IMG/VR virus record: IMGVR_UViG_3300019755_000001
Source: a virus
Lineage: Duplodnaviria > Heunggongvirae > Uroviricota > Caudoviricetes
Direction: 5' to 3' (one strand)
Length of the DNA stretch: 64,000 nt
In this document: positions 5,719 to 54,026 of the stretch, piece after piece
How the letters are laid out: each line of letters begins with the position of its first letter
Position numbering within the stretch: position 1 is the first letter of the stretch
The notes under the pieces: generated by a model
Databases searched by the model: none
Told to the model about the DNA's origin: nothing
The model's input: only the letters and a program-made list of their open reading frames with translations
Program-made: the position numbers and the translations under genes

Positions 5719-6318
5719 TTAATTATATCCTTTTCCGTCTGTATTATAACTTAATTTACGTTTCCTTTTCCATCTGTCTAGTACCTCATCCTTATCTAGC
5801 CACAGATCTTTACCCTCAAGTACTCTATTAATTTCCTTATTACTCAGAAATCCTTTGTATAAGTCATTGAATACACCGGCTAGCAGTTTATCACTAAACT
5901 CCATGTATGCTTTAGTTTCGTGGTGCTTGCCTTGTGTACCTCCAGATGAGCTGTGTATCATAAAACTTGTCCAGTCCCCTATTTCTATCTCATCACAACA
6001 CATCGTAATCATAGTTGCTGCACTAGCTACTGTACCGTCTAGTACTGCTATTACTTTTGCGTTGGATTTCTGTATTGCCGAACGTATACTCAGCATACTA
6101 TCCATATAGCCGCCACCGTTATTCATTATTAATTTTACTGTTTTTGCTTTTGTGTGTTCTAATGTGTGTATTAGTTCGCAGTAATTACCAACTGAGTATA
6201 CCTCTTCTGGTAGGTACGCATATACTGTATCTTTATCCGCTATTATCGGTACTGCTTTTTCCCATTCGCTAGTTGCTCCTGGTGCTTTATCTTCGTTGAA
6301 TGTTAGTTCTAATTCCAT
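5719..6318 (-). CDS. ClpP-like serine peptidase (S14 family)
   Basis: 199 aa. IMNNGGGYMDS...GTVASAATMI...MIHSSSGGTQG aligns with the ClpP core (NSPGG...GQAASMG...MIHQPLGG), including the catalytic Ser and His context. Confidence 0.7.
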   Translation of the reverse strand: MELELTFNEDKAPGATSEWEKAVPIIADKDTVYAYLPEEVYSVGNYCELIHTLEHTKAKTVKLIMNNGGGYMDSMLSIRSAIQKSNAKVIAVLDGTVASAATMITMCCDEIEIGDWTSFMIHSSSGGTQGKHHETKAYMEFSDKLLAGVFNDLYKGFLSNKEINRVLEGKDLWLDKDEVLDRWKRKRKLSYNTDGKGYN

Positions 6319-6393
6319 ATTGGCCCTTTATTGTAGTTTCAGGCAGTCTATCTTAACTACCTGACTACATTATAGGTCACATTGGCTTGTGTT

Positions 6394-7227
6394 TTACTGA
6401 AGTTGACTGTTTTGTTGGATTGTGTAGTCCATTAGTAACTTCTGTGTTGGTCTATCCGTATGTAGTGTCAGTACTCCGTCCATCTTACCAGTCTTGTTGA
6501 TGTAGTGCCGCAGGTGACTTGGTGTTATGTCCTGTAGTTCGTGTTTCTTCAGCATTATCTCTAGTATTGGTGTTGCTAGGTGTATGTTCTCGTACGCATG
6601 TTGGTCTTGTTTATTTGCTTCAGCTGTTGCTTGTTTCTCTAGCACTATTTGCTCTTTTCTACTTTCTACTAGCAAGTCTGTGTGTTCTCTTGTTATTTGG
6701 TCTATATCTTCCTTCTCCAGCCATTCTATTACTTCAGTAGGGTTATCGTCCCAATGTGCCTGCAATTGAGCCACAGCATCACTTCCTAGTTGATTTGGTA
6801 GTATCTCGTATGGGTTAGTCATTAGCTTGTATTTACCAATCTTCACAACCATGCCTGATTCGATTAACCACTTTAGTACTTTACTTGCTACGGGAGCCGA
6901 GCACCCTAACCATTCTGCTATTGATTTGTTTAGTGGTTTGCCCTTACTATCGTACGCGATATTACCAGTCTTTCCACCTCTTGTCTCAGCTATTAGTTTT
7001 CCTAGTGCTGTACTCTTGTGTGTATCTCCTGCTACGTTTAGCATCATTGTCATTACTGCTGGTCCTAGTCTTTTCATGTTACCTGTCTTTGCTCTATTCT
7101 GTCTTACCAGTGTAGTTGTGGTCTCTGTGTATCTTACCACAGTCCCATTCTTGTTGTTTTGTGTATGTCCTACTTGCTCTTGACGTAGTACGTCACCGTG
7201 TATTGTTGCATTTGTATTAACTTGCAT
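6394..7227 (-). CDS. hypothetical protein with a probable winged-HTH segment
   Basis: 277 aa. The segment IAEWLGCSAPVASKVLKWLIESGMVVKIGKYKL looks like an HTH/wing. Confidence 0.45.
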   Translation of the reverse strand: MQVNTNATIHGDVLRQEQVGHTQNNKNGTVVRYTETTTTLVRQNRAKTGNMKRLGPAVMTMMLNVAGDTHKSTALGKLIAETRGGKTGNIAYDSKGKPLNKSIAEWLGCSAPVASKVLKWLIESGMVVKIGKYKLMTNPYEILPNQLGSDAVAQLQAHWDDNPTEVIEWLEKEDIDQITREHTDLLVESRKEQIVLEKQATAEANKQDQHAYENIHLATPILEIMLKKHELQDITPSHLRHYINKTGKMDGVLTLHTDRPTQKLLMDYTIQQNSQLQ

Positions 7228-23304: not shown

Positions 23305-23892
23305 ATGATAACACTACAACAAGCAAACGAACTGTGTACACTAGCTCACGAAAACCAATGGCGTAGACCTAGAGGGATGAATAAAACTGATAGAATCCTA
23401 TTTTCAGACAAACTAGACTCATTGTCAGAAGAAGATGACTATGACGTTGATGTATATACTATTAATCATCACAGATTTTCATGGTCTGAAGGTGCAGAAG
23501 AGTGGTTTATGGAAGAGCCTTACCATACTCATCCTCAAGCAGTGGCTGCTATGATGAATACAGAGTACCGTAAGATCCTTGCACTCTTACATGATGTAAT
23601 TGAGGATACTGCCTATGAGCTTACTAATTGCATGGTAACAAAAAAATGCTACATAGTTATGCCCGACAAAGAACAGTACGCGATTTCTCATGATCTGTAC
23701 ATAGACTTAGAGTTGCTTACTAAAGACCCAAACCTTACGTACAGAGAGAATATCAGACGTATCAAGGACTCAGGTCGAGCAGACCCCATTGCTGTCAAGA
23801 TTGCTGACAATTGCAATAACTTATCTACTGGTACTGACAAGCAAAAAGAGCGGTACTTAACTGTCTCTCTACCAATCTTATTAAAGGATTAA
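23305..23892 (+). CDS. HD-domain (p)ppGpp hydrolase-like protein (SpoT/Mesh1 small-alarmone-hydrolase family)
   Basis: 195 aa. LAHENQWRR...EPYHTHPQAVAAMM...ILALLHDVIEDT...DPIAVKIADNCNNL parallels the RelA/SpoT hydrolase motifs (HxGQ.R..GePY..HPl.VA, LLHDVvEDT, KLADRLHNM). Confidence 0.55.
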   Translation: MITLQQANELCTLAHENQWRRPRGMNKTDRILFSDKLDSLSEEDDYDVDVYTINHHRFSWSEGAEEWFMEEPYHTHPQAVAAMMNTEYRKILALLHDVIEDTAYELTNCMVTKKCYIVMPDKEQYAISHDLYIDLELLTKDPNLTYRENIRRIKDSGRADPIAVKIADNCNNLSTGTDKQKERYLTVSLPILLKD

Positions 23893-23893
23893 C

Positions 23894-25081
23894 ATGACAT
23901 TACAACAAAAGAAAGAACTGTACGAGCAAGGTAATCATATTTGTTTACTAGAAAATAAGTTTGGTGACACTGATTGGTCAATACACGAAGACCCGAAATG
24001 GAATCCTCAATGGGGCTATCAACTAATCCACAAAAAGCACAGACACATCCTAGATGCTTACTTGGACGGTTGTGAGGTTTACGTTTGCCCTCAAACAGCA
24101 CCAGAGATTATAACAGACTTTATTGAAGGTTATGAAGAGGAATGGGAATACCTTGCAATTCCAGGGTCACTGAAGAACTGCTACTGTGAAGCTACTAACG
24201 TACATTATCAAATACTTTATTCTATAGCAAAGAACCCAGGGTCGTTATTTGACTTTAACTACGCTAAAAGTGAGGAATACTATGTTATATTCCCTAATGG
24301 ACAAAATAGCGAACAATACTCTAAAACATATGCAGTTATAGAAGAAGACATGAATAAAGTCGAATGGAACGAATCAATACAAAACTGGGTATATTGCCCA
24401 AAGGAGACTGAAGATGAAGCCAACAACTATTCATATACTGGAGATAATCACAGCGATAATAGCAGGGATGTTACTATGCAAGAAAATACTATAAACAACT
24501 TCAATGACTACGGGTTCACTGCTGACTTTCCTGGACACCTTACAGGTGAAATGGTTGAATTCTATAACCAGACATACCTCCTTGGGTACTTCTTAGAAGG
24601 TAAGATGAAACATCCTAGAGCACAGTTCTGGAACAAAGATACTGGTAGGATCTGGCAAGGGGAGTGTAACACGATGTACAACCTCACACCAATCGTACCT
24701 GAGTACCCTCTATTTAAGAAGAACGAAGCTGGTGATGTACTAAGAATAGATAGCGAGTTATCAGGCACATGGATGCTGTTAGCTAATAGCGATTTCATAG
24801 GAGATCCTGAGAACTTACAGGAAATTCCTGTGCTTTCTTCAGACTATTGGACTGACATTCCTTACGACTCTGAACGAGGTTTTTACCACGGACAACCTGT
24901 ATGGGTACACTTTGCAGACGACGCTTCTATGATATACTTCTATAATGCAGACAAAGACTTGTTTCACACAGCAGGTGGAGGCTGCATACATTCTAGTAAA
25001 GTAGAACCAATAGCACTAGAAGCACTACAACACATGCCATTCGTTTGGGAGCAGTATCAAGCCTTCATAAAGGAGAAATGA
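23894..25081 (+). CDS. hypothetical protein
   Basis: 395 aa. Its N-terminus MTLQQKKEL resembles MITLQQANEL of the upstream HD-domain protein. Confidence 0.5.
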   Translation: MTLQQKKELYEQGNHICLLENKFGDTDWSIHEDPKWNPQWGYQLIHKKHRHILDAYLDGCEVYVCPQTAPEIITDFIEGYEEEWEYLAIPGSLKNCYCEATNVHYQILYSIAKNPGSLFDFNYAKSEEYYVIFPNGQNSEQYSKTYAVIEEDMNKVEWNESIQNWVYCPKETEDEANNYSYTGDNHSDNSRDVTMQENTINNFNDYGFTADFPGHLTGEMVEFYNQTYLLGYFLEGKMKHPRAQFWNKDTGRIWQGECNTMYNLTPIVPEYPLFKKNEAGDVLRIDSELSGTWMLLANSDFIGDPENLQEIPVLSSDYWTDIPYDSERGFYHGQPVWVHFADDASMIYFYNADKDLFHTAGGGCIHSSKVEPIALEALQHMPFVWEQYQAFIKEK

Positions 25082-25212: not shown

Positions 25213-25422
25213 ATGATATTAGAAAGTCTAGAAGTAAACGGCAAATTCACTGATGCTGAGTTAACAACAAATGCATTACACATAAATGGTAGTAAGCCTG
25301 ACTTAAGGTTTGATGTAGTAGGAGACCATGTCTACACGATAACAAACGGTGTAGATACGGTTGTAGTAGCTGCAGACATGGGAAATAGCCACGGTGTAGT
25401 ACTATCTATCACCAATTACTAA
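25213..25422 (+). CDS. hypothetical protein
   Basis: Start moved to Met13 after an AAGGAG RBS; 69 aa. Confidence 0.35.
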   Translation: MILESLEVNGKFTDAELTTNALHINGSKPDLRFDVVGDHVYTITNGVDTVVVAADMGNSHGVVLSITNY

Positions 25423-25762
25423 AGTAACCAAACAGGCACAGACTTCTAACCACCCGTACGCGATGGAATTAGTGGTGGAGTAGTGTTAAACGACATCATA
25501 ATCGATGGAACCTGTAATCTTACCTAACTATTGAAAGACATAGAGGCGAAACAACGTGAGGTCATTGCTGGAGCAGAAACAACCTGTTCCGTGTGCTATT
25601 GGCGCCTTGCTAGGTAAGCCACTCGCTACAGAGGGTACAACCAGTGATGTCAATGTCATCGCATGCTACGGGAGATCCTGCAGAAGTGTTGGTAAACTGA
25701 GTCTGGTCTTGTCAGAGGAGAATTGGAACGACTCCTGTAAACTAACTAGATTCCACCCGTAT

Positions 25763-25872
25763 GCAGTATTAGCTCAGTTGGTAGAGCACTTTCCAAGTAA
25801 TTGTCTGGAGAACACCCTCTAATTAAGAGGTGCAAGAGAGTTAGGTCCCTGGTTCGAGCCCAGGATACTGCA
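25763..25872 (+). tRNA. tRNA-like gene, 110 nt, with a ~35-42 nt insertion in the anticodon region
   Basis: Perfect 7-bp acceptor (GCAGTAT/ATACTGC). Canonical D-arm (TAGCTCAGTTGGTAGAGC), variable loop AGGTC and T-arm (CCTGG-TTCGAGC-CCAGG), discriminator A. Between the 6-bp helix ACTTTC/GAGAGT sits 42 nt that contains its own hairpin (CACCCTC-TAATTAA-GAGGTG). No canonical 7-nt loop with U33 could be derived. Confidence 0.45.
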
Positions 25873-26056
25873 CAACCTGGTCAGTATTATCGGTACAGGT
25901 GTGAATGTACCAACTTTATTTATGCTGTGGAAGTGGGTAACAATACAGGATCGAGGCCTGTGCCCAGCACCACTCAGTCTTGGAAGCAAGTCTGTTTAAC
26001 TAGCCGTATATAGATAAGTCTGCAGGGTGTAGCTCTGGGGGTAACAGCCCGGGTCG

Positions 26057-26073
26057 CAAGGTTCGAATCCTTG
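26057..26073 (+). ncRNA. isolated T-arm-like hairpin (CAAGG-TTCGAAT-CCTTG); no matching acceptor stem
   Basis: Perfect T-stem/loop consensus, but no complementary 5' acceptor within 120 nt. A GGGTAACA motif is repeated at 25935 and 26035. Confidence 0.25.
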
Positions 26074-26180
26074 AAAGTATACGCAACCTACTACAGTCGT
26101 ACAATCGTTATACTCCTTGGGAGTTGAGTACGCAACCATTCTCGACGGTCCATGTAACGTGCAACATGGAGCTTTTATAT

Positions 26181-26300
26181 GAAAGAGTGACAGAGTAGGG
26201 AGTAGTTAGCAAGCTATTCTGCAATGTGTGAGTGTATATGTAACATCACTCGACGGTTCTTTACACAACCACGTAGGTTGAAATCCTACCTCTTTCACCA
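26181..26300 (+). tRNA. tRNA-like gene, 117 nt plus encoded CCA, with a ~40 nt insertion
   Basis: Perfect 7-bp acceptor (GAAAGAG/CTCTTTC). T-arm GTAGG-TTGAAAT-CCTAC, discriminator A, then CCA. The central region is expanded. It contains GGTT-CTTTACAC-AACC with an 8-nt loop bearing TTA. Confidence 0.4.
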
Positions 26301-26309
26301 ATTTTATAC

Positions 26310-26380
26310 GGACGTTTACCCAATCTGGTCTGAATGTGGCAGGTCGCTCCTGTAGGTCGGTTCAATTCCGACAACGTCCA
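26310..26380 (+). tRNA. tRNA-like gene, 71 nt, non-canonical D/anticodon region
   Basis: Perfect 7-bp acceptor (GGACGTT/AACGTCC). T-arm GTCGG-TTCAATT-CCGAC, discriminator A. The D and anticodon arms could not be folded into the canonical form by eye. Confidence 0.4.
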
Positions 26381-26589
26381 CACACTTTTATATGCCGAGT
26401 ATGTACCGCATGCTATAGTACACAGCGCAACTGGAAGGGAGGGACCTTCTGCTCGGCTCCAACACCTCATTACTAAGCAACTACTGAGTTGTTTATTTAT
26501 GAAGTAACTAATAAAGGACTAATATGGATGACAAACCTACGTCAGAATCATGGTTTAAAACCATTAACAAATACCTCTAAGGATTAACT

Positions 26590-26721
26590 ATGACAAGTAA
26601 AAAAGTAACATACTCTGATATAAATAAAGTCAATAAACTTATAAGAAAGAACAAGGGCAAACTTAAACCTAAATTCTACGAAGGTGGGTCACCAGGCCTT
26701 AAGCAAATACGAAGAGGTTGA
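26590..26721 (+). CDS. small basic protein (43 aa)
   Basis: Not in the ORF track. MTSKKVTYSDINKVNKLIRKNKGKLKPKFYEGG... AAAGGA RBS. Confidence 0.3.
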   Translation: MTSKKVTYSDINKVNKLIRKNKGKLKPKFYEGGSPGLKQIRRG

Positions 26722-30221: not shown

Positions 30222-30527
30222 ATGGAATTGTCCTACCAATGGTTTTGGTTAGTTAAACTCGGATTGTTCTTGGTAACTGTAGGTGCTACCTACAGGGCAG
30301 TATGGAAGTACAAGTTACAATCTAGAGTATGGAACATTATTCTACTAATACTTTTTATATTTTCCTGGATGATGCCAATTAAGATGAACCCAACAACAAA
30401 CACGGTGAACTACCAAGCAGATAGAGCTATAGCTACTTCGAAAGTACTTCCACCCAAACAAGTGGACGATAGCTTTAAGCAATCTGTTAATGCAGTTCAA
30501 TCAATAAGCAAAGAGGAGCTTAAATGA
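30222..30527 (+). CDS. membrane protein (2 TM); NfeD-like partner by context
   Basis: 101 aa. WFWLVKLGLFLVTVGATY and WNIILLILFIFSWMMPI are hydrophobic. Overlaps the SPFH gene (ATGA). Confidence 0.45.
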   Translation: MELSYQWFWLVKLGLFLVTVGATYRAVWKYKLQSRVWNIILLILFIFSWMMPIKMNPTTNTVNYQADRAIATSKVLPPKQVDDSFKQSVNAVQSISKEELK

Positions 30528-31420
30528 AAAGATTATTTAAAACAGTAGCAGCAAGTGCTGTAGCATTACTTCTACTTACTGGATGTAATGTACAAGTCGA
30601 GCAAGGAACAGTTGCTAAAGTACTTGGACCGACAGGGTTCCAACCAGAGGTTTATCCTCCAGGCGTTGTTAACATTGACAACGGGTTTTTTACTTCTAAT
30701 AGAAAGAAAGAGAAATTAATATTCGTAGAGACTACTACGGAGAAATTTAACGAACCAATAGAAGTACTTCTAAAAGACAAGTTAAAACTTAAGTTTGAAG
30801 TTGTATTTAGAGGTAGAAATACTACTGACAAGAAGAGACTTGATGCTATTTTCAATGACATGAAAATGGATGATGATAGAATCACTACTAGAGAAGTGTA
30901 CAATGTATACGGTAAGATGATCGTAATGAACACAGCCAGAGCAGTCATATCTAAGTACAACGTAGACGAAGTTAATGTCAACTACGAAAGAATTACCGTT
31001 GAGCTCTACCAAGCTTTACTTCCTAAGTTACAAAACATCCCTATGGATATATCAGATGTCACTATTGGGGCTATTGAGTACCCTAAATCTGTTACAGCAG
31101 CAATAGAAGCAGCAAACAAGAGAAGAATGGAGATTACTACTCAACAAGCACAGACTCAAATTGAACTTACTAGGAAAAAAGGTCAAGAAGAGTTAGCAGA
31201 AGCAGATTATAGAATTAAGATGTTAGAAGCTAAGAGAATTAGAGACTACAACGCTATGACTGCTAAAGGAATTACTCCTCAACTTATCACACTTAGAAAA
31301 CTTGAACTACAAGACAAAGAACTTGATGTTAGACTTGCTGAGGCTGAGAGATGGAACGGATCACTTCCAGCAACTGTTATGAATGGTAATATACCAGTTA
31401 TAGCAAATACGAGTAAGTAA
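30524..31420 (+). CDS. SPFH/band-7 (stomatin/prohibitin/HflKC-like) lipoprotein
   Basis: 298 aa. Lipobox LLLLTGC. KVLGPTGFQPEVYPPGV... plus a long C-terminal coiled-coil (QQAQTQIELTRKKGQEELAEADYRIKMLEAK) is characteristic of SPFH proteins. Confidence 0.6.
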   Translation: MKRLFKTVAASAVALLLLTGCNVQVEQGTVAKVLGPTGFQPEVYPPGVVNIDNGFFTSNRKKEKLIFVETTTEKFNEPIEVLLKDKLKLKFEVVFRGRNTTDKKRLDAIFNDMKMDDDRITTREVYNVYGKMIVMNTARAVISKYNVDEVNVNYERITVELYQALLPKLQNIPMDISDVTIGAIEYPKSVTAAIEAANKRRMEITTQQAQTQIELTRKKGQEELAEADYRIKMLEAKRIRDYNAMTAKGITPQLITLRKLELQDKELDVRLAEAERWNGSLPATVMNGNIPVIANTSK

Positions 31421-32915: not shown

Positions 32916-34061
32916 ATGAAATTACATCCAGGTATTACCAATCCTAGATCTATACAGGCTTATAAAAATTTTAAAAAGAAGCTAATTGGTCTGTATGATG
33001 ATAAATGTGATTATAGTGAGGCTGTGTACACAGGTGCTAAAAATCCTATTACGATTACGTGTAAAATACATAATTTTACTTATAAGCAAAGAGCTGAAGG
33101 ACACCTTAAAAGTTCTGGGTGTAGTAGATGTAAAAACGAGGCTGTAGGAAATCGTTTACGTAAATCAGTTTTCAGTTTTATTGCGGAGGCCGTTGAAGTA
33201 CATAATGATTTTTACACCTACTCTAATATTTCTTATCACTCTGCACATGAACCTGTGATCATTACTTGCCCAATCCACGGGGATTTTAAGCAAGTACCTA
33301 CAAATCACCTAAAAGGTGTTGGGTGCAGAAAGTGTGGCATTGCAAAGAGTAGCCAAGCTAAAAAATCCAGTACTCAAGAATTTATACTACAAGCAAAAGC
33401 AGTGCATAATAATACTTACACTTATACAAACGTCGAGTACACAACTGCAAGAGACAATGTAAAAATAACCTGTCCAATACATGGAGACTTTGAACAAACT
33501 CCTAGTAGTCATTTGGTTGGGTCTGGTTGCCCTAGATGTCTAGGTAGGAATAAAACCACGAAAGACTTTATCAAAGAATCACAAAAAGTACATAATAATA
33601 AGTACTATTACTCAAATACAATATACACAAATGCGAAAAGTAAAGTGATAATCACTTGCTCAACGCATGGTGATTTTGAACAAATAGCCTCCGATCACCT
33701 ATCAGGTAGAGGCTGCTCTTCCTGTACGAAAACGGGGTTTGATGGGGCTAAATCAGCTGTACTATATTATCTTTCAATCAATAACGGAGAAGCGTATAAG
33801 ATCGGTATAACAAACCGGACAATTAAAGAGAGATTCGGGCTTGATATGAGTAATATCAGAGTCTTACATCAAATCCATTATAAGTCCGGAAAAGATGCTT
33901 ACAATGAGGAACAGCGAATTCTTAGAGAATTCATTGACCATAAGTATACAGGTCCTGACTTATTGAAGTCAGGTAATACAGAATTATTCAAAACGAATAT
34001 CCTTAACCTAGCTTATGAGAAGTTCAAGGATATGGAATTATTTAGTAGAGAAGGAGATTAA
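32916..34061 (+). CDS. homing-endonuclease-like protein; paralog of 4542-5693 (four Cys/His repeats plus T5orf172/GIY-YIG-like domain)
   Basis: 381 aa. Four repeats (VHN.FYTYSN..Y.....ITCPIHGDFEQ.P..HL.G.GC..C). C-terminus VLYYLSINNGEAYKIGITNRTIKERF...SGNTELF. Confidence 0.6.
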   Translation: MKLHPGITNPRSIQAYKNFKKKLIGLYDDKCDYSEAVYTGAKNPITITCKIHNFTYKQRAEGHLKSSGCSRCKNEAVGNRLRKSVFSFIAEAVEVHNDFYTYSNISYHSAHEPVIITCPIHGDFKQVPTNHLKGVGCRKCGIAKSSQAKKSSTQEFILQAKAVHNNTYTYTNVEYTTARDNVKITCPIHGDFEQTPSSHLVGSGCPRCLGRNKTTKDFIKESQKVHNNKYYYSNTIYTNAKSKVIITCSTHGDFEQIASDHLSGRGCSSCTKTGFDGAKSAVLYYLSINNGEAYKIGITNRTIKERFGLDMSNIRVLHQIHYKSGKDAYNEEQRILREFIDHKYTGPDLLKSGNTELFKTNILNLAYEKFKDMELFSREGD

Positions 34062-42371: not shown

Positions 42372-42916
42372 TTTAGTGGTGCCTAGGTTAAATGATCACA
42401 GCCACAAACAACTTTAAGGAGTCTTTGATGAATTTCAGAGGAAGCAAAATCGGATGCGGAGTAATCTGCGGCGTGGTTTCAGGAATGGAATCGTGAAAGG
42501 GGTAGGTGGAATGGGCGGAAGTCCTATGACTGGTGCCGAATGTCGTTGGGAGAACAATGACTCTCCTATCACTGACGGTGGAGACATCTAACTAACTTGA
42601 CAAGTGGTGGAATAAACGAGTTAGAGTCTCGTACTGTCCTTAACTGGGCAGTGTGAATGGTTCACAAAGACACATACCAAGCCGAAGCAATCTTTACGGC
42701 TGTAACTACAGGGAGTCGGTTCAATTCCGATGACACACATTAGGGGTTGTGGAGGGGTTCAAGGCCCTAAACTGTAGTGTCTCAAGGTGTAAGTCCTTGA
42801 GCTTGTCAACAAGGCAGACGTGCCGAGCTTCAGTTTAGTGGTTAATAGCCGATACTTTACTGATTAAACAACAAGCCTCTACCACATTGCACTATGTTTT
42901 GTGGATACGCTTTTAT

Positions 42917-42987
42917 GAAGCATTCGTCTAGTGGTAGGACCACAACATTAAAATCAGTGTACCCAGGTTCGATTCCTGGATGCTTCA
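42917..42987 (+). tRNA. tRNA-like gene, 71 nt, with an enlarged anticodon loop
   Basis: Perfect acceptor GAAGCAT/ATGCTTC. D-arm GTC-TAGTGGTAG-GAC. T-arm CCAGG-TTCGATT-CCTGG, discriminator A. The anticodon region CACAACATTAAAATCAGTG only forms a 3-4 bp stem with a ~9-13 nt loop. Confidence 0.4.
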
Positions 42988-43043
42988 CTTAACCCTTTCC
43001 AAGCTAGGTAAACAGACTAATGCAATTTAGTCGGAGGGTTTAT

Positions 43044-43122
43044 GGACATTTAGCTCAGTGGTAGAGCGCCTGCACTAGCATGAAATAACAGGAGGCCACA
43101 AGTTCAACTCTTGGAATGTCCA
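43044..43122 (+). tRNA. tRNA-like gene, 79 nt, with a ~15-nt anticodon loop
   Basis: Acceptor GGACATT/AATGTCC. Canonical D-arm TAGCTCAGTGGTAGAGCG. The 5' anticodon stem CCTGC is followed by ACTAGCATGAAATAA and then (A)CAGG. T-arm CAAG-TTCAACT-CTTG. 3' end A-CC. Confidence 0.4.
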
Positions 43123-43295
43123 CCTTACACCGCAACATGCTCATGAAAGAGGCGGTATATAAATAGACAAGTGAAGAGCAGGAATGGGGAATTGATAGAA
43201 TCATCCGCAGCCTTAAAGAGCAAGGGAACTATCACGAACAAGTAGGGTCTTATCCAATTGGATTTGTACTTCTACGCAAACAGTAAATTTACGCA

Positions 43296-43361
43296 ACAAC
43301 CAACTAGCCTACAGGTGTAGGATTGCAGCCCTCTGGCTCGAAACCAGTACGTTGGTTGTTG
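43296..43361 (+). ncRNA. mini tRNA-like element: 11-bp terminal helix enclosing two hairpins, one of them T-arm-like
   Basis: CAACAACCAAC...GTTGGTTGTTG forms a perfect 11-bp closing helix. Inside are CCTACA-GG-TGTAGG and CTGG-CTCGAAA-CCAG. Confidence 0.3.
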
Positions 43362-43676
43362 TAGTAAGTTTATATGACCTGAGACGGCCGAGCTTATCAC
43401 TTTCGATATACAGTACTGATGGAATTCAACATCAACTACTGGACGTGCCTTAAACCGTTGATCTGCAGAATCACTGAGTGGCGGCGCACAATGCTCGGTA
43501 AGGTACTAGAGCTATACAAGAGAGTACCTATGGCTACCTCGAAAAGAGTGAAATAATTTACTAGTTTACAGTCATATAAAACTAGTGCAAACAATCAGCT
43601 GATGAAGCACACACCACACCAGGCAAATTGTCGAGGAAGTTATGTGCTTTAGTGAGTTGATAATAAAGGAGTAATT

Positions 43677-52828: not shown

Positions 52829-54026
52829 TAACTAACCAGCCCCTCGTACTCGTGAGAGTATGTAGCAAAATTCTTTAATTGTCTGGAACGTCTTGTTAGG
52901 CGTACACTAGGATATTACCACGAAAGTAGGTAACGAACCCTGAAAATGTGTACGATAGAGAAAATCAGCAGCGAAGCATCGTAGTATTAATTTACCGATG
53001 AACGTTCAACGAACATCCCGTCAGGGAGTAGAACCTCTAGTTATAAAATGAGGAAGAAATAGGAATAAACTAACTTATTTAAGTTACAAATAAATATTTT
53101 CTGCTATAATGTTATTAAACATAATAGGAGAACATAATGGAAGAAATACATAAAGATATCAAAGGCTTTGAGGAATTATACTCAATTACCAGTAAAGGTA
53201 GAGTTTACTCTAAACGTAGTAAGATCTATTTAACACTGGCAAAGTCTATCCAACCGCAAACAACCTATCTTAGGGTGACATTACAAGACAATGGCAGAAT
53301 CGAGAGATTCTTAGTCCACCGACTTGTAGCATCACACTTCATAGACAACCCAACTAACAAACCGTGCGTAAACCATATTGACAATAACGGGTCTAACAAC
53401 TCAGTTAACAATATCGAGTGGTGTACCTATTCAGAGAACCTCGTACATGCTCAATTACAGGGTAGGCTATTTGAGTCTCAGTCTAAAGGCGGACAAGCAG
53501 CAAATGCTAAAGTTCAAGCAGAAATCGCTGAACAAGTAGCAGAGTTAACTGGTCGTACATTTGGTTTATGGGAAGTCACAGGATTTCACGGACGTGAAGA
53601 GATTGGGACGCAAGGAATGTTCAGATTTAATATGAATGTAACTTGTACAGGGTGTGGAACGGATTCAGTAGTTGATAAAAATCAATTAATCTCTGGTAAA
53701 TCTGAAGGTTGTTTAAGTTGTAGGACTAAACAAGCTGGAAGAGAACGTTCAGTTAGGACATTGGAGAAACTCAAAGGCACATATAAGGATCACTGGCATA
53801 TACTGGATTACTACTTCGACGATGAAGTACAAGTCTTAACTTGTCAATGTACTTTATGTGGTGATACTACTGATAAAAAGAAATCTAGTCTTATAGGACG
53901 GCCTATGAGAAAATGTAAAATTTGTAAAAATAAATAATTTAGTTTAAGATATGTTCTAATCTTACAGGAGACTGTAAGCGAGTTAAAAGCTCGGAGTAAG
54001 TGTAACGCCTTACTTGAATATAAATG
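52829..54026 (+). mobile_element. candidate group I intron (~1.2 kb) carrying an HNH homing endonuclease ORF
   Basis: Core-like elements: P AATTGTCTGGAACG (52877-52890); Q AATCAGCAGCG (52963-52973); R GTTCAACGAACA (53004-53015); S AAGATATGTTCT (53946-53957). R GAACA pairs with S TGTTC. A GCCCC guide at 52841 can pair with the exon-1 end GGGU. Terminal G at 54026 leaves exon 2 in frame. Confidence 0.45.
53137..53937 (+). CDS. HNH homing endonuclease (NUMOD4 + HNH_3 type, I-HmuI-like)
   Basis: 266 aa; AGGAG RBS. NUMOD4-like GFEELYSITSKGRVYS. HNH_3 motif FLVHRLVASHFIDNPTNKPCVNHIDNNGSNNSVNNIEWCTYSEN. C-terminal Zn-ribbon Cys pairs. Confidence 0.8.
   Translation: MEEIHKDIKGFEELYSITSKGRVYSKRSKIYLTLAKSIQPQTTYLRVTLQDNGRIERFLVHRLVASHFIDNPTNKPCVNHIDNNGSNNSVNNIEWCTYSENLVHAQLQGRLFESQSKGGQAANAKVQAEIAEQVAELTGRTFGLWEVTGFHGREEIGTQGMFRFNMNVTCTGCGTDSVVDKNQLISGKSEGCLSCRTKQAGRERSVRTLEKLKGTYKDHWHILDYYFDDEVQVLTCQCTLCGDTTDKKKSSLIGRPMRKCKICKNK

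Follow-up and report, generated by a model that had tools for sequence, protein, structure and literature searches.

Candidate non-decoding tRNA-like RNAs in an uncultured phage resemble the stable RNAs of T5 and T4

In its tRNA region, phage T5 (record AY543070) carries two molecules annotated as "tRNA-like stable RNA with unknown functions," RNA1 (144 nt) and RNA2 (125 nt), a "putative tRNA-like RNA," RNA3 (73 nt), and further annotated stable RNAs. Phage T4 likewise has two small stable RNAs of unknown function, rnaC (species 1 RNA) and rnaD (species 2 RNA), beside its tRNA genes. Here, we analyze positions 25423-26520 of a 64,000-nt stretch of DNA from an uncultured tailed phage (the whole stretch is hereafter called the window), a region of ∼1.1 kb devoid of open reading frames (ORFs) in which three elements on the + strand, E1 (25763-25872), E2 (26181-26300), and E3 (26310-26380), retain the acceptor stem and T-arm of a tRNA without a decoding anticodon arm. 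We propose, with a probability of about 0.6, that the elements of this stretch are selected, unspliced, non-decoding tRNA-like RNAs.

The T5 molecules provide the reference for this proposal. In predicted folds, the body of RNA1 is that of a Leu-like tRNA whose anticodon loop is replaced by a branched extension of ∼40 nt. The termini of RNA2 pair with each other, a T-arm lies at its end, and hairpins form in its interior; RNA3, a small molecule about the size of a tRNA, lacks a proper anticodon arm. ARAGORN in intron mode mis-calls RNA1 as Leu(taa) i(33,40), and the Rfam tRNA model scores it at 24 bits over the whole model. RNA1 (30501-30644; L145) is found at full length in 487 phage records and RNA2 (32959-33083) in 436, almost never annotated; in most of the records listed the homologues are unannotated, and in four they lie under a coding sequence labeled "hypothetical protein." An alignment of seven diverse RNA1 homologues shows compensatory changes in 10 of 38 pairs, some of them in the extended anticodon stem and some in the inner hairpin, the 8-nt loop of which (ACAUCCRC) is the same in all seven. 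The RNA1 "insert" covaries while presenting an invariant loop, and it is therefore a selected structural domain rather than intron filler.

In the window, which is part of a phage contig of ∼89-108 kb present in several assemblies, the stretch is flanked by a small ORF ending at 25422 and by the next called gene at 26590. The gene callers of three independent assemblies of this phage (JGI, Logan, ENA) called no gene between these two positions, in agreement with an earlier reading of the letters without database searches (the sequence-only reading), which had seen no credible ORFs there. The same reading had described three elements with perfect 7-bp acceptor stems and consensus T-arms, and we found their sequences and coordinates to be as described: E1, E2, and E3 each have 7/7 acceptor pairs and 5/5 T-stem pairs enclosing a 7-nt T-loop (TTCGAGC, TTGAAAT, and TTCAATT, respectively). 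It had further claimed that none of them has a canonical anticodon arm, which also held. ARAGORN in default mode returned neither an ordinary tRNA nor a transfer-messenger RNA (tmRNA) in the stretch, and a 5-bp anticodon stem with a 7-nt loop bearing U33 and a purine at position 37 is absent from E1, E2, and E3 according to ARAGORN, Rfam, and folding. Among the three, only E1 matches the Rfam tRNA model (RF00005, gathering threshold 29 bits). At E ≤ 10, no Rfam match was obtained for tmRNA, YrlA (RF02553), ribozymes, or riboswitches; moreover, E1-E3 carry A3-U70 and not the G3-U70 of the tRNA-Ala-like domain of tmRNA.

To estimate how often such elements arise by chance, we scanned for a 5-bp T-stem with its T-loop and a 7-bp acceptor stem. 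Over both strands of the 64 kb, this strict pattern returned E1-E3, one element in a second cluster described below, and two implausibly long matches. A looser scan yielded 34 matches in 201 kb (the window plus its relatives) compared with 6-13 in shuffled sequences, corresponding to an expectation of ∼0.03 per 1.1 kb where three are observed. When the count was anchored on T-arms, 21 of 48 strict T-arms were paired with a 7/7 acceptor partner, against 6.3 expected. This excess over shuffled sequences indicates that the tRNA-like elements of the stretch are real and not due to chance.

The three elements replace the anticodon domain in different ways. E1 (110 nt) is a full tRNA body with the acceptor stem GCAGTAT/ATACTGC followed by A, the consensus D-arm GCTCAGTTGGTAGAGC, and the T-arm CCTGG-TTCGAGC-CCAGG, in which the anticodon loop gives way to a branched 42-nt insert (25794-25835), closed by the 6-bp stem ACTTTC/GAGAGT and containing the hairpin CACC(C)TCT-AATTA-AGAGGTG at 25813-25832. 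The extra segment with its own hairpin had been noticed between these stem strands and put at about 35-42 nt; the description of E1 as otherwise textbook applies to the acceptor stem, D-arm, and T-arm and less to the variable region, which comes to 7 nt if the stem is taken as CTTTC/GAGAG. E1 scores 44.6 bits against the Rfam tRNA model, only in a local search and only by way of a 46-nt insertion in the anticodon arm. E2 has the acceptor stem GAAAGAG/CTCTTTC, the T-arm GTAGG-TTGAAAT-CCTAC (26273-26289), and an encoded ACCA. It had been given as 117 nt with an encoded CCA; the CCA is there, and the coordinates span 120 nt, i.e., 117 nt plus CCA. Its interior folds into three hairpins with neither a D-arm nor an anticodon arm, no Rfam family matches it, and ARAGORN has to be run at a relaxed threshold to report it, the stems then being mismatched. 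E3 is a cloverleaf-like element of 71 nt with the acceptor stem GGACGTT/AACGTCC and the T-arm GTCGG-TTCAATT-CCGAC. Its best "anticodon" hairpin in the fold, GCAGG/CCTGT, has a 5-nt loop, its only Rfam match is an insignificant one to tRNA-Sec (21 bits, E = 0.42), and the ARAGORN call obtained at -ps80 has two stem mismatches and A33.

Four related contigs were found through homologues (33-41% identity) of a 395-aa protein that is encoded upstream of the array, and an exact 25-mer from a spacer, block C (25972-26008), retrieved nine further metagenome contigs as well as two IMG/VR contigs. Similar arrays exist in at least 10 related uncultured phages and in the cultured Alteromonas phage AD45-P1: each of the related contigs (designated here by L numbers) has ORF-free stretches at the corresponding place, filled with unusual tRNA-like elements 45-141 nt long. 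These relatives have few canonical tRNAs: a Cys-GCA, a Ser-GCU, an irregular "Val-AAC," and calls of the type "tRNA-???" in which the anticodon has 2 or 4 nt. A family of ∼50-nt elements found in eight phages consists of an acceptor stem, a 5-bp hairpin with the loop ACNCYGR, and a T-arm; compensatory changes occur in 9 of its 17 pairs, a number reached in 0 of 500 column shuffles, and the signal collapses in slid-partner controls. Compensatory changes are also seen in a ∼105-nt family (L010, L023) and in a family of E1-like elements whose anticodon arm contains a long hairpin (L017, L015, L010). Taken together, these results indicate that the elements are genuine, depart from the canonical tRNA, and are structurally constrained. 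The results support the suggestion of tRNA-derived non-decoding RNAs made in the sequence-only reading, given that the acceptor and T halves are intact and covary in related families, that the anticodon domains are replaced, and that the build is that of the T5 molecules.

The comparison with relatives also revealed a conserved framework around variable bodies. Leaders, hairpins, and the closing terminator (25478-25519, 25716-25757, 25972-26008, 26145-26181, and 26469-26501) are 86-100% identical over ∼40 nt across phages whose flanking 395-aa proteins are only 37-41% identical. That non-coding sequence is conserved so far above the coding level suggests either that promoter and terminator signals are strongly constrained or that co-occurring phages have recombined recently. 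In a given slot, on the other hand, the bodies differ from phage to phage, and a single leader block is followed by a different, unrelated body in each of five phages. In AD45-P1, two unannotated elements of 71 nt (record 52961-53031; L153 2961-3031) and 144 nt (53155-53298; L153 3155-3298) each combine a 7-bp acceptor stem with a T-arm, and the 144-nt element terminates in CCA. Their T-rich leaders, similar to those of the window, are CCTTTTAC followed by G and CTTTTTCCA followed by T, and they adjoin the sole annotated tRNA (Met) of that phage and a gene labeled guanosine polyphosphate pyrophosphohydrolase.

We considered whether E1, and perhaps E2, could be tRNA genes interrupted by short intervening sequences that are spliced into decoding tRNAs, such as a tRNA-Cys(GCA) from E1. 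ARAGORN with introns allowed and at its default threshold indeed calls E1 as tRNA-Cys(gca) i(32,37), with a 37-nt intron at 32/33 whose excision gives the loop CUGCAAG; U-GCA-A lies directly 3′ of a hairpin in both E1 and E2; the equivalent array of L016 holds a canonical tRNA-Cys(GCA); and in the IMG/VR contig L142 a similar anticodon-loop insert occurs in three different tRNA bodies, as expected of a spreading intron. However, the E1 solution requires a missing nucleotide 26 and a 6-nt variable loop, no single excision restores a strictly canonical anticodon arm, and an equally good excision is possible in 57% of shuffled E1 inserts. The discriminator of E1 is A73, whereas the canonical tRNA-Cys of L016 has U73. 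E1 contains no bulge-helix-bulge motif, and the Intron_gpI model, which does detect a genuine group I intron in L008, finds nothing at E ≤ 10 between 25000 and 27000; group I introns measure ∼200 nt or more, against 42 nt for the insert. The host is bacterial, as judged from a lysozyme gene in the window, and Pfam and PHROGs searches of the 50 ORFs of the 64-kb window, a part of the ∼107-kb genome, found no RNA ligase, polynucleotide kinase, CCA-adding enzyme, or splicing endonuclease. In addition, T5 RNA1, a molecule built in the same way, is entered in the T5 annotation as stable at full length, and the covariation in its "insert" is that of a functional domain; for E2 and E3 no acceptable tRNA is obtained even with introns allowed, only mismatched models at relaxed thresholds. 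Splicing of E1 or E2 into decoding tRNAs thus appears very improbable to us, and an intron reading of E1-E3 as a whole unlikely; the short intervening sequences suggested by the sequence-only reading fare poorly, since the sole splice solution is no better than chance and neither a bulge-helix-bulge motif in E1 nor a splicing enzyme among the 50 ORFs was found.

Alternatively, the elements could be decaying, functionless pseudogenes of a former tRNA cluster. Degenerate neighbors exist, namely a minihelix at 25924-25972 with 5/7 acceptor pairs and the T-loop ATCGAGG, and an element, E4 (26394-26461), without a T-loop; some slots in relatives are empty or shrunken, E1-E3 have no homologues there, and the lineage has few canonical tRNAs. 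Neutral decay, however, should strike acceptor and T stems as much as anticodon arms, and E1-E3 keep 7/7 and 5/5 pairs together with consensus T-loops. Decay is also at odds with the compensatory changes that maintain stems in related families, with the presence of similar molecules at full length in hundreds of T5-like phages, and with the persistence of array and leaders, in compact phage genomes, across phages whose proteins are ∼35-40% identical. Pure decay of E1-E3 is thus unlikely, and we regard the functionless-pseudogene explanation as improbable, if somewhat less so than splicing. A further explanation is that the elements are mere processing signals resembling t-elements, such that cuts by RNase P and RNase Z release spacer RNAs or shape neighboring mRNAs, with the spacers as the functional products. 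The spacers are indeed the most conserved parts, with 95-100% identity over ∼40 nt among phages with 37-41% identical proteins, they hold hairpins followed by U-runs, and constraint on the bodies is limited to the minihelix half; a report on plant mitochondria describes t-elements as contributing to mRNA end formation (PMC1920247). Yet the internal loop ACNCYGR of the ∼50-nt family is conserved while its stems covary, which argues that the bodies carry sequence-specific information, and the same is true of the T5 RNA1 loop. Furthermore, the T5 annotation names the tRNA-like molecules themselves as stable RNAs, promoters and terminators explain the spacer conservation equally well, and within the 64 kb the spacer motifs occur only inside the array. 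We consider a role restricted to processing as improbable as splicing.

Several points weigh against our proposal that the elements are selected, non-decoding tRNA-like RNAs. E1, E2, and E3 have no sequence homologue in any fetched relative, so that the case for selection on them is made from analogy and from the integrity of their stems. Their single-sequence folding energies are unremarkable (z = -1.5 to -2.2). E4 itself lacks a T-loop and the minihelix at 25924-25972 is decayed; because some neighboring elements have clearly decayed, birth and death take place in these arrays. No partner protein was found; the 395-aa neighbor has no recognizable family or fold and was given up as a lead. 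Neither the T5 RNAs nor T4 rnaC and rnaD show sequence similarity to the window elements. Finally, we infer transcription, end positions, and stability of the array RNAs from sequence.

Based on the architecture of the elements, we suggest the following model. In tRNAs, the acceptor stem and T-arm stack coaxially into a "minihelix," the half recognized by RNase P, 3′ trimming enzymes, and the CCA-adding enzyme. The RNAs would be transcribed from the + strand, with a 5′ end at the conserved G that follows a T-rich leader (TTTATAT before G, CGTAT before G), generated by RNase P or by direct initiation, and a 3′ end with an encoded or added CCA. They would undergo tRNA-like maturation and then accumulate unspliced, as the T5 annotation states for RNA1-3, and would be unable to decode. 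The tRNA half would serve as a scaffold for processing and stability, and the variable half would present a hairpin or loop to a partner. Speculatively, this partner might be a host protein directed at tRNAs, for example a toxin that modifies them or a defense nuclease. An N4-type phage RNA polymerase, the middle promoters of which are AT-rich (reviewed in PMC4496689), may use the T-rich leaders as promoters.

Several reports describe tRNAs as major targets of bacterial immunity and phage tRNAs as a means to counteract it (PMC10264068, PMC11464382, PMC11555353, PMC12851939, PMC12445682), which makes a tRNA mimic that does not decode an evident candidate for a part in this conflict. The arrays might accordingly be imagined as RNA-based counter-defense islands, each cassette being a tRNA-scaffolded decoy or sponge matured by host tRNA enzymes. 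Each would titrate one particular immune effector of the host that is directed at tRNAs, be it an anticodon nuclease, a tRNA-binding sensor, or an enzyme (nuclease or modifying toxin) that attacks the acceptor/CCA end. Cassette-like exchange of bodies together with near-identical promoters, terminators, and leaders would follow from the pressure of an arms race. Decoys for host anticodon nucleases had already been among the suggestions of the sequence-only reading; we hold a decoy function of the array RNAs to be doubtful at present, and the broader picture of counter-defense islands equally tentative. If true, this picture would also explain what T5 RNA1-3 and T4 species 1 RNA do.

Apart from E1-E3, the array contains conserved leaders and spacers and at least three further tRNA-shaped elements (26003-26090, 25924-25972, and 26394-26461) beyond those of the sequence-only reading, all on the + strand. 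The conserved non-coding leader region (25423-25762) comprises block A (25478-25519), which is 100% identical over 42 nt to L007, and block B (25703-25762), which is 95% identical over 42 nt to L010, although the flanking protein is just 37-41% identical; block B ends in CCACCCGTAT, directly preceding the first G of E1 (25763). No Rfam family matches the leader region, and no sigma-70-like promoter was found on the + strand. Upstream of E1, ∼240 nt of non-coding sequence (25463-25700) are 81-92% identical to L014, L017, and L018 and contain the direct repeat GAGGCGAAACAACGTG and GAGCAGAAACAACCTG with no tRNA-like features; the L014 homologue runs on into a T-arm that is missing from the window. 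Downstream of E1, a terminator-like site (25892-25911) consists of the hairpin GGTACAGGTGTGAATGTACC and a T-rich run abutting the next element, and the hairpin is kept in L010, L015, L016, L017, L014, and L022. The next element is the degenerate 49-nt minihelix (25924-25972), ending in ACCA. Its intact positional homologue lies at 9632-9679 of L022, with a 7-bp acceptor stem and the T-loop TTCAACT, and L017 carries a close copy.

Spacer block C (25972-26008), containing CTTGGAAGCAAGTCTGTTTAACTAG, is 93-97% identical in nine related loci and had no match in bacterial genomes in a search for hosts and prophages. It leads into an 88-nt element that folds into a cloverleaf-like structure (26003-26090), closed by CGTATA/TATACG and followed by CAACC. 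The T-arm at 26057-26073, which had been taken for an orphan, lies inside this element. The corresponding slot in relatives ranges from 5 nt (a pentaloop) to a body of ∼75 nt and is always closed by a covarying stem (CGTAC/GTACG, CGTCA/TGACG, CGTAG/CTACG); in L014 it also holds a T-arm. A small stem-loop predicted at 26097-26138 (CGTAC...GTACG-CAACC) is of the same type. Spacer block D (26145-26180), a terminator-like site made of a hairpin at 26149-26170 and GCTTTTATAT, abuts E2 and is 86-96% identical in L007, L010, L014-L018, L020, and L023. Past E3, the 68-nt E4 (26394-26461) has an 8-bp closing stem, GCCGAGTA/TGCTCGGC, and two hairpins, and ends in TCCA; L023 contains a homologue of 90% identity, and another lies at L007 9240-9307. 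In the L007 homologue the T-loop is a canonical TTCGAAT, and the inner hairpin shows compensatory changes with respect to E4 (TGTAC/GTACA against TCTAC/GTAGA). A closing hairpin, CAACT-ACTG-AGTTG plus TTTATTTAT (26478-26501), precedes the next ribosome-binding site, is kept in L007, L020, L014, and L023, and is likely the end of the array. T-runs between elements directly adjoin the first G of the next element, as in TTTATTTAT before G and CTTTTATAT before G. A nearly invariant start context, ACAAAGGA(T/C)TAA(C/T)TATG, is found at 26511-26526 of the window and at many small ORFs located 3′ of arrays (L016, L018, L022). Among the ideas tried for these parts, an insert acting as a mobile hairpin or antisense regulator was rejected, as neither the window nor its relatives contain a significant match to the E1-E3 cores, whether direct or reverse-complemented. 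Spacer motifs as genome-wide promoters were rejected likewise, because GGAA[CG]..CTGT occurs in non-coding sequence of the + strand at only three sites, all within the array. An (ARN)n or GCAA motif following several insert hairpins was too short and too A-rich and was not used as evidence.

The 1.1-kb region and the 6 kb around it have no blastn match in 50,697 phage records, and IMG/VR scans with the neighboring protein and with the 5′ half of E1 found nothing. The window encodes a family A DNA polymerase, helicases, PhoH, a Clp-type protease, lysozyme, and several HNH and GIY-YIG-type endonucleases. Among cultured phages, its DNA polymerase is nearest (31% identity) to that of the 100-kb Alteromonas phages AD45-P1 to P4, the annotation of which includes N4-like virion RNA polymerase, portal, and primase genes. 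Relatives, too, encode the 395-aa protein (23894-25081) beside their arrays, and Cys, His, and Trp residues in it are invariant. It has no sequence match in Pfam, PHROG, PADLOC, or PDB, its AlphaFold model is poor (predicted local distance difference test score of 64), and Foldseek against PDB gave nothing below E = 0.2. The adjacent gene encodes an HD-domain protein (23305-23892) weakly similar to (p)ppGpp/(p)ppApp hydrolases (E = 0.02); the gene beside the AD45-P1 elements bears a similar label. In the related contig L008, a group I intron (6213-6466; Rfam 69.6 bits) lies beside many HNH, GIY-YIG, and NUMOD endonuclease genes of the lineage. The same contig (13235-13352) and L010 (11524-11612) hold tRNA-like elements with G3-U70 and A73, the alanine identity pair; that of L008 also encodes CCA and has a second, internal T-arm-like hairpin, as in T5 RNA2.

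The window contains a second ORF-free cluster of similar character at 42372-43676. The element at 42917-42987 scores 41.9 bits against the Rfam tRNA model with a mismatched anticodon stem (or a 6-nt loop), and that at 43044-43124 scores 50.7 bits with a 16-nt "anticodon" loop, being called by ARAGORN as tRNA-??? with a 2-nt anticodon. A perfect 11-bp closing stem with a T-arm-like hairpin is found at 43294-43361, and a lone T-arm at 42715-42731 is identical over 16 nt to that of E3.

We then looked for E1-like genes elsewhere: at least 120 IMG/VR contigs contain the E1 D-arm with GGTTCGA 36-66 nt further on. The matches listed include many giant-virus tRNA-Tyr, Lys, Asn, and Ile genes with ordinary 37/38 introns, as well as phage contigs, usually within large canonical tRNA clusters, with tRNA bodies bearing structured inserts of 35-45 nt. 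These insert-bearing genes resemble E1 in their D-arm and T-arm, in having a hairpin in the insert, and in the distance from D-arm to T-loop (62-65 nt in L040, L091, L141, L142, and the family of L044/L110/L118/L126/L135/L140; 63 nt in E1), with Rfam tRNA scores of 42-52 bits; they differ in sharing insert motifs (a hairpin plus ACAGCAA; CCTCCCTCA...GGGCC) that are missing from E1. On the - strand of L142, three different tRNA bodies lie in tandem (611-725, 812-926, and 1158-1269), each with a ∼45-nt insert composed of a 6-7-bp hairpin and then (U)AACAGCAAU, a motif that recurs in other viral contigs (L040, L091, L141). Such genes form an uncharacterized insert-bearing tRNA-like family or, possibly, represent a spreading mini-intron. 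L044, L110, L118, L126, L135, and L140 form a phage tRNA-cluster family in which the anticodon/variable region is replaced by ∼53 conserved nt (..CCTCCCTCAAGGTGAAGGGCCAAAACGCAGGGAATAAAGG..). Intron-containing tRNA genes of archaea, eukaryotes, and giant viruses resemble E1 in having extra sequence in the anticodon region of a good body; in contrast to them, E1 has no insertion at 37/38, no bulge-helix-bulge, and no canonical loop after excision, and its host is bacterial. The t-elements that contribute to mRNA end formation in plant mitochondria, as described in the report cited above, share with the window elements an acceptor and T-arm mimic without decoding that tRNA-processing enzymes can cleave; they flank mRNAs, whereas the window elements form an array without intervening genes, some with conserved internal loops. 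Our literature search found nothing specific on short inserts in phage tRNA genes or on tRNA-like decoys.

On a practical level, default tRNA finders miss genes of this kind, and intron-tolerant modes mis-call them as intron-bearing tRNAs. The molecules known from T5 and T4 would now extend to an unrelated uncultured lineage, in which they dominate the tRNA region, sit in a conserved regulatory framework, turn over like cassettes, and evolve by compensatory changes. The conservation of T5 RNA1 and RNA2 in >400 phages, the covarying RNA1 insert, and the AD45-P1 elements make an old question experimentally approachable.

In terms of known systems, the window elements are best filed, by analogy of architecture and context, as new members of the known, functionally unexplained class of T5/T4 tRNA-like stable RNAs, a membership that would not be one of descent given the lack of sequence homology. 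The nearest match is that with the T5 annotation. In T4, rnaC (139 nt) has paired termini and ends in a canonical T-arm, CCGGG-UUCGAAU-CCCGG, like the window elements, while the rnaD fold shows no T-arm, and the two T4 RNAs lie beside eight normal tRNAs rather than in an array. The window phage is not a T5 relative, its polymerase being nearest, at 31% identity, to that of N4-related Alteromonas phages; the T5 RNAs sit among ∼24 canonical tRNAs, which are almost absent from the window phage, and they are annotated as stable, whereas those of the window are predicted from sequence. Nevertheless, as with T5 RNA1-3, E1-E3 lie on the gene strand in an ORF-free, tRNA-type region of a virulent phage and combine an acceptor stem and consensus T-arm with the lack of a decoding anticodon arm, at sizes of 110, 120, and 71 nt compared with 144, 125, and 73 nt. 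RNA2 and RNA3 of T5, like E2 and E3, escape the Rfam tRNA model, and E1, like T5 RNA1, is a full tRNA body with a branched insert that ARAGORN in intron mode mis-calls as intron-bearing.

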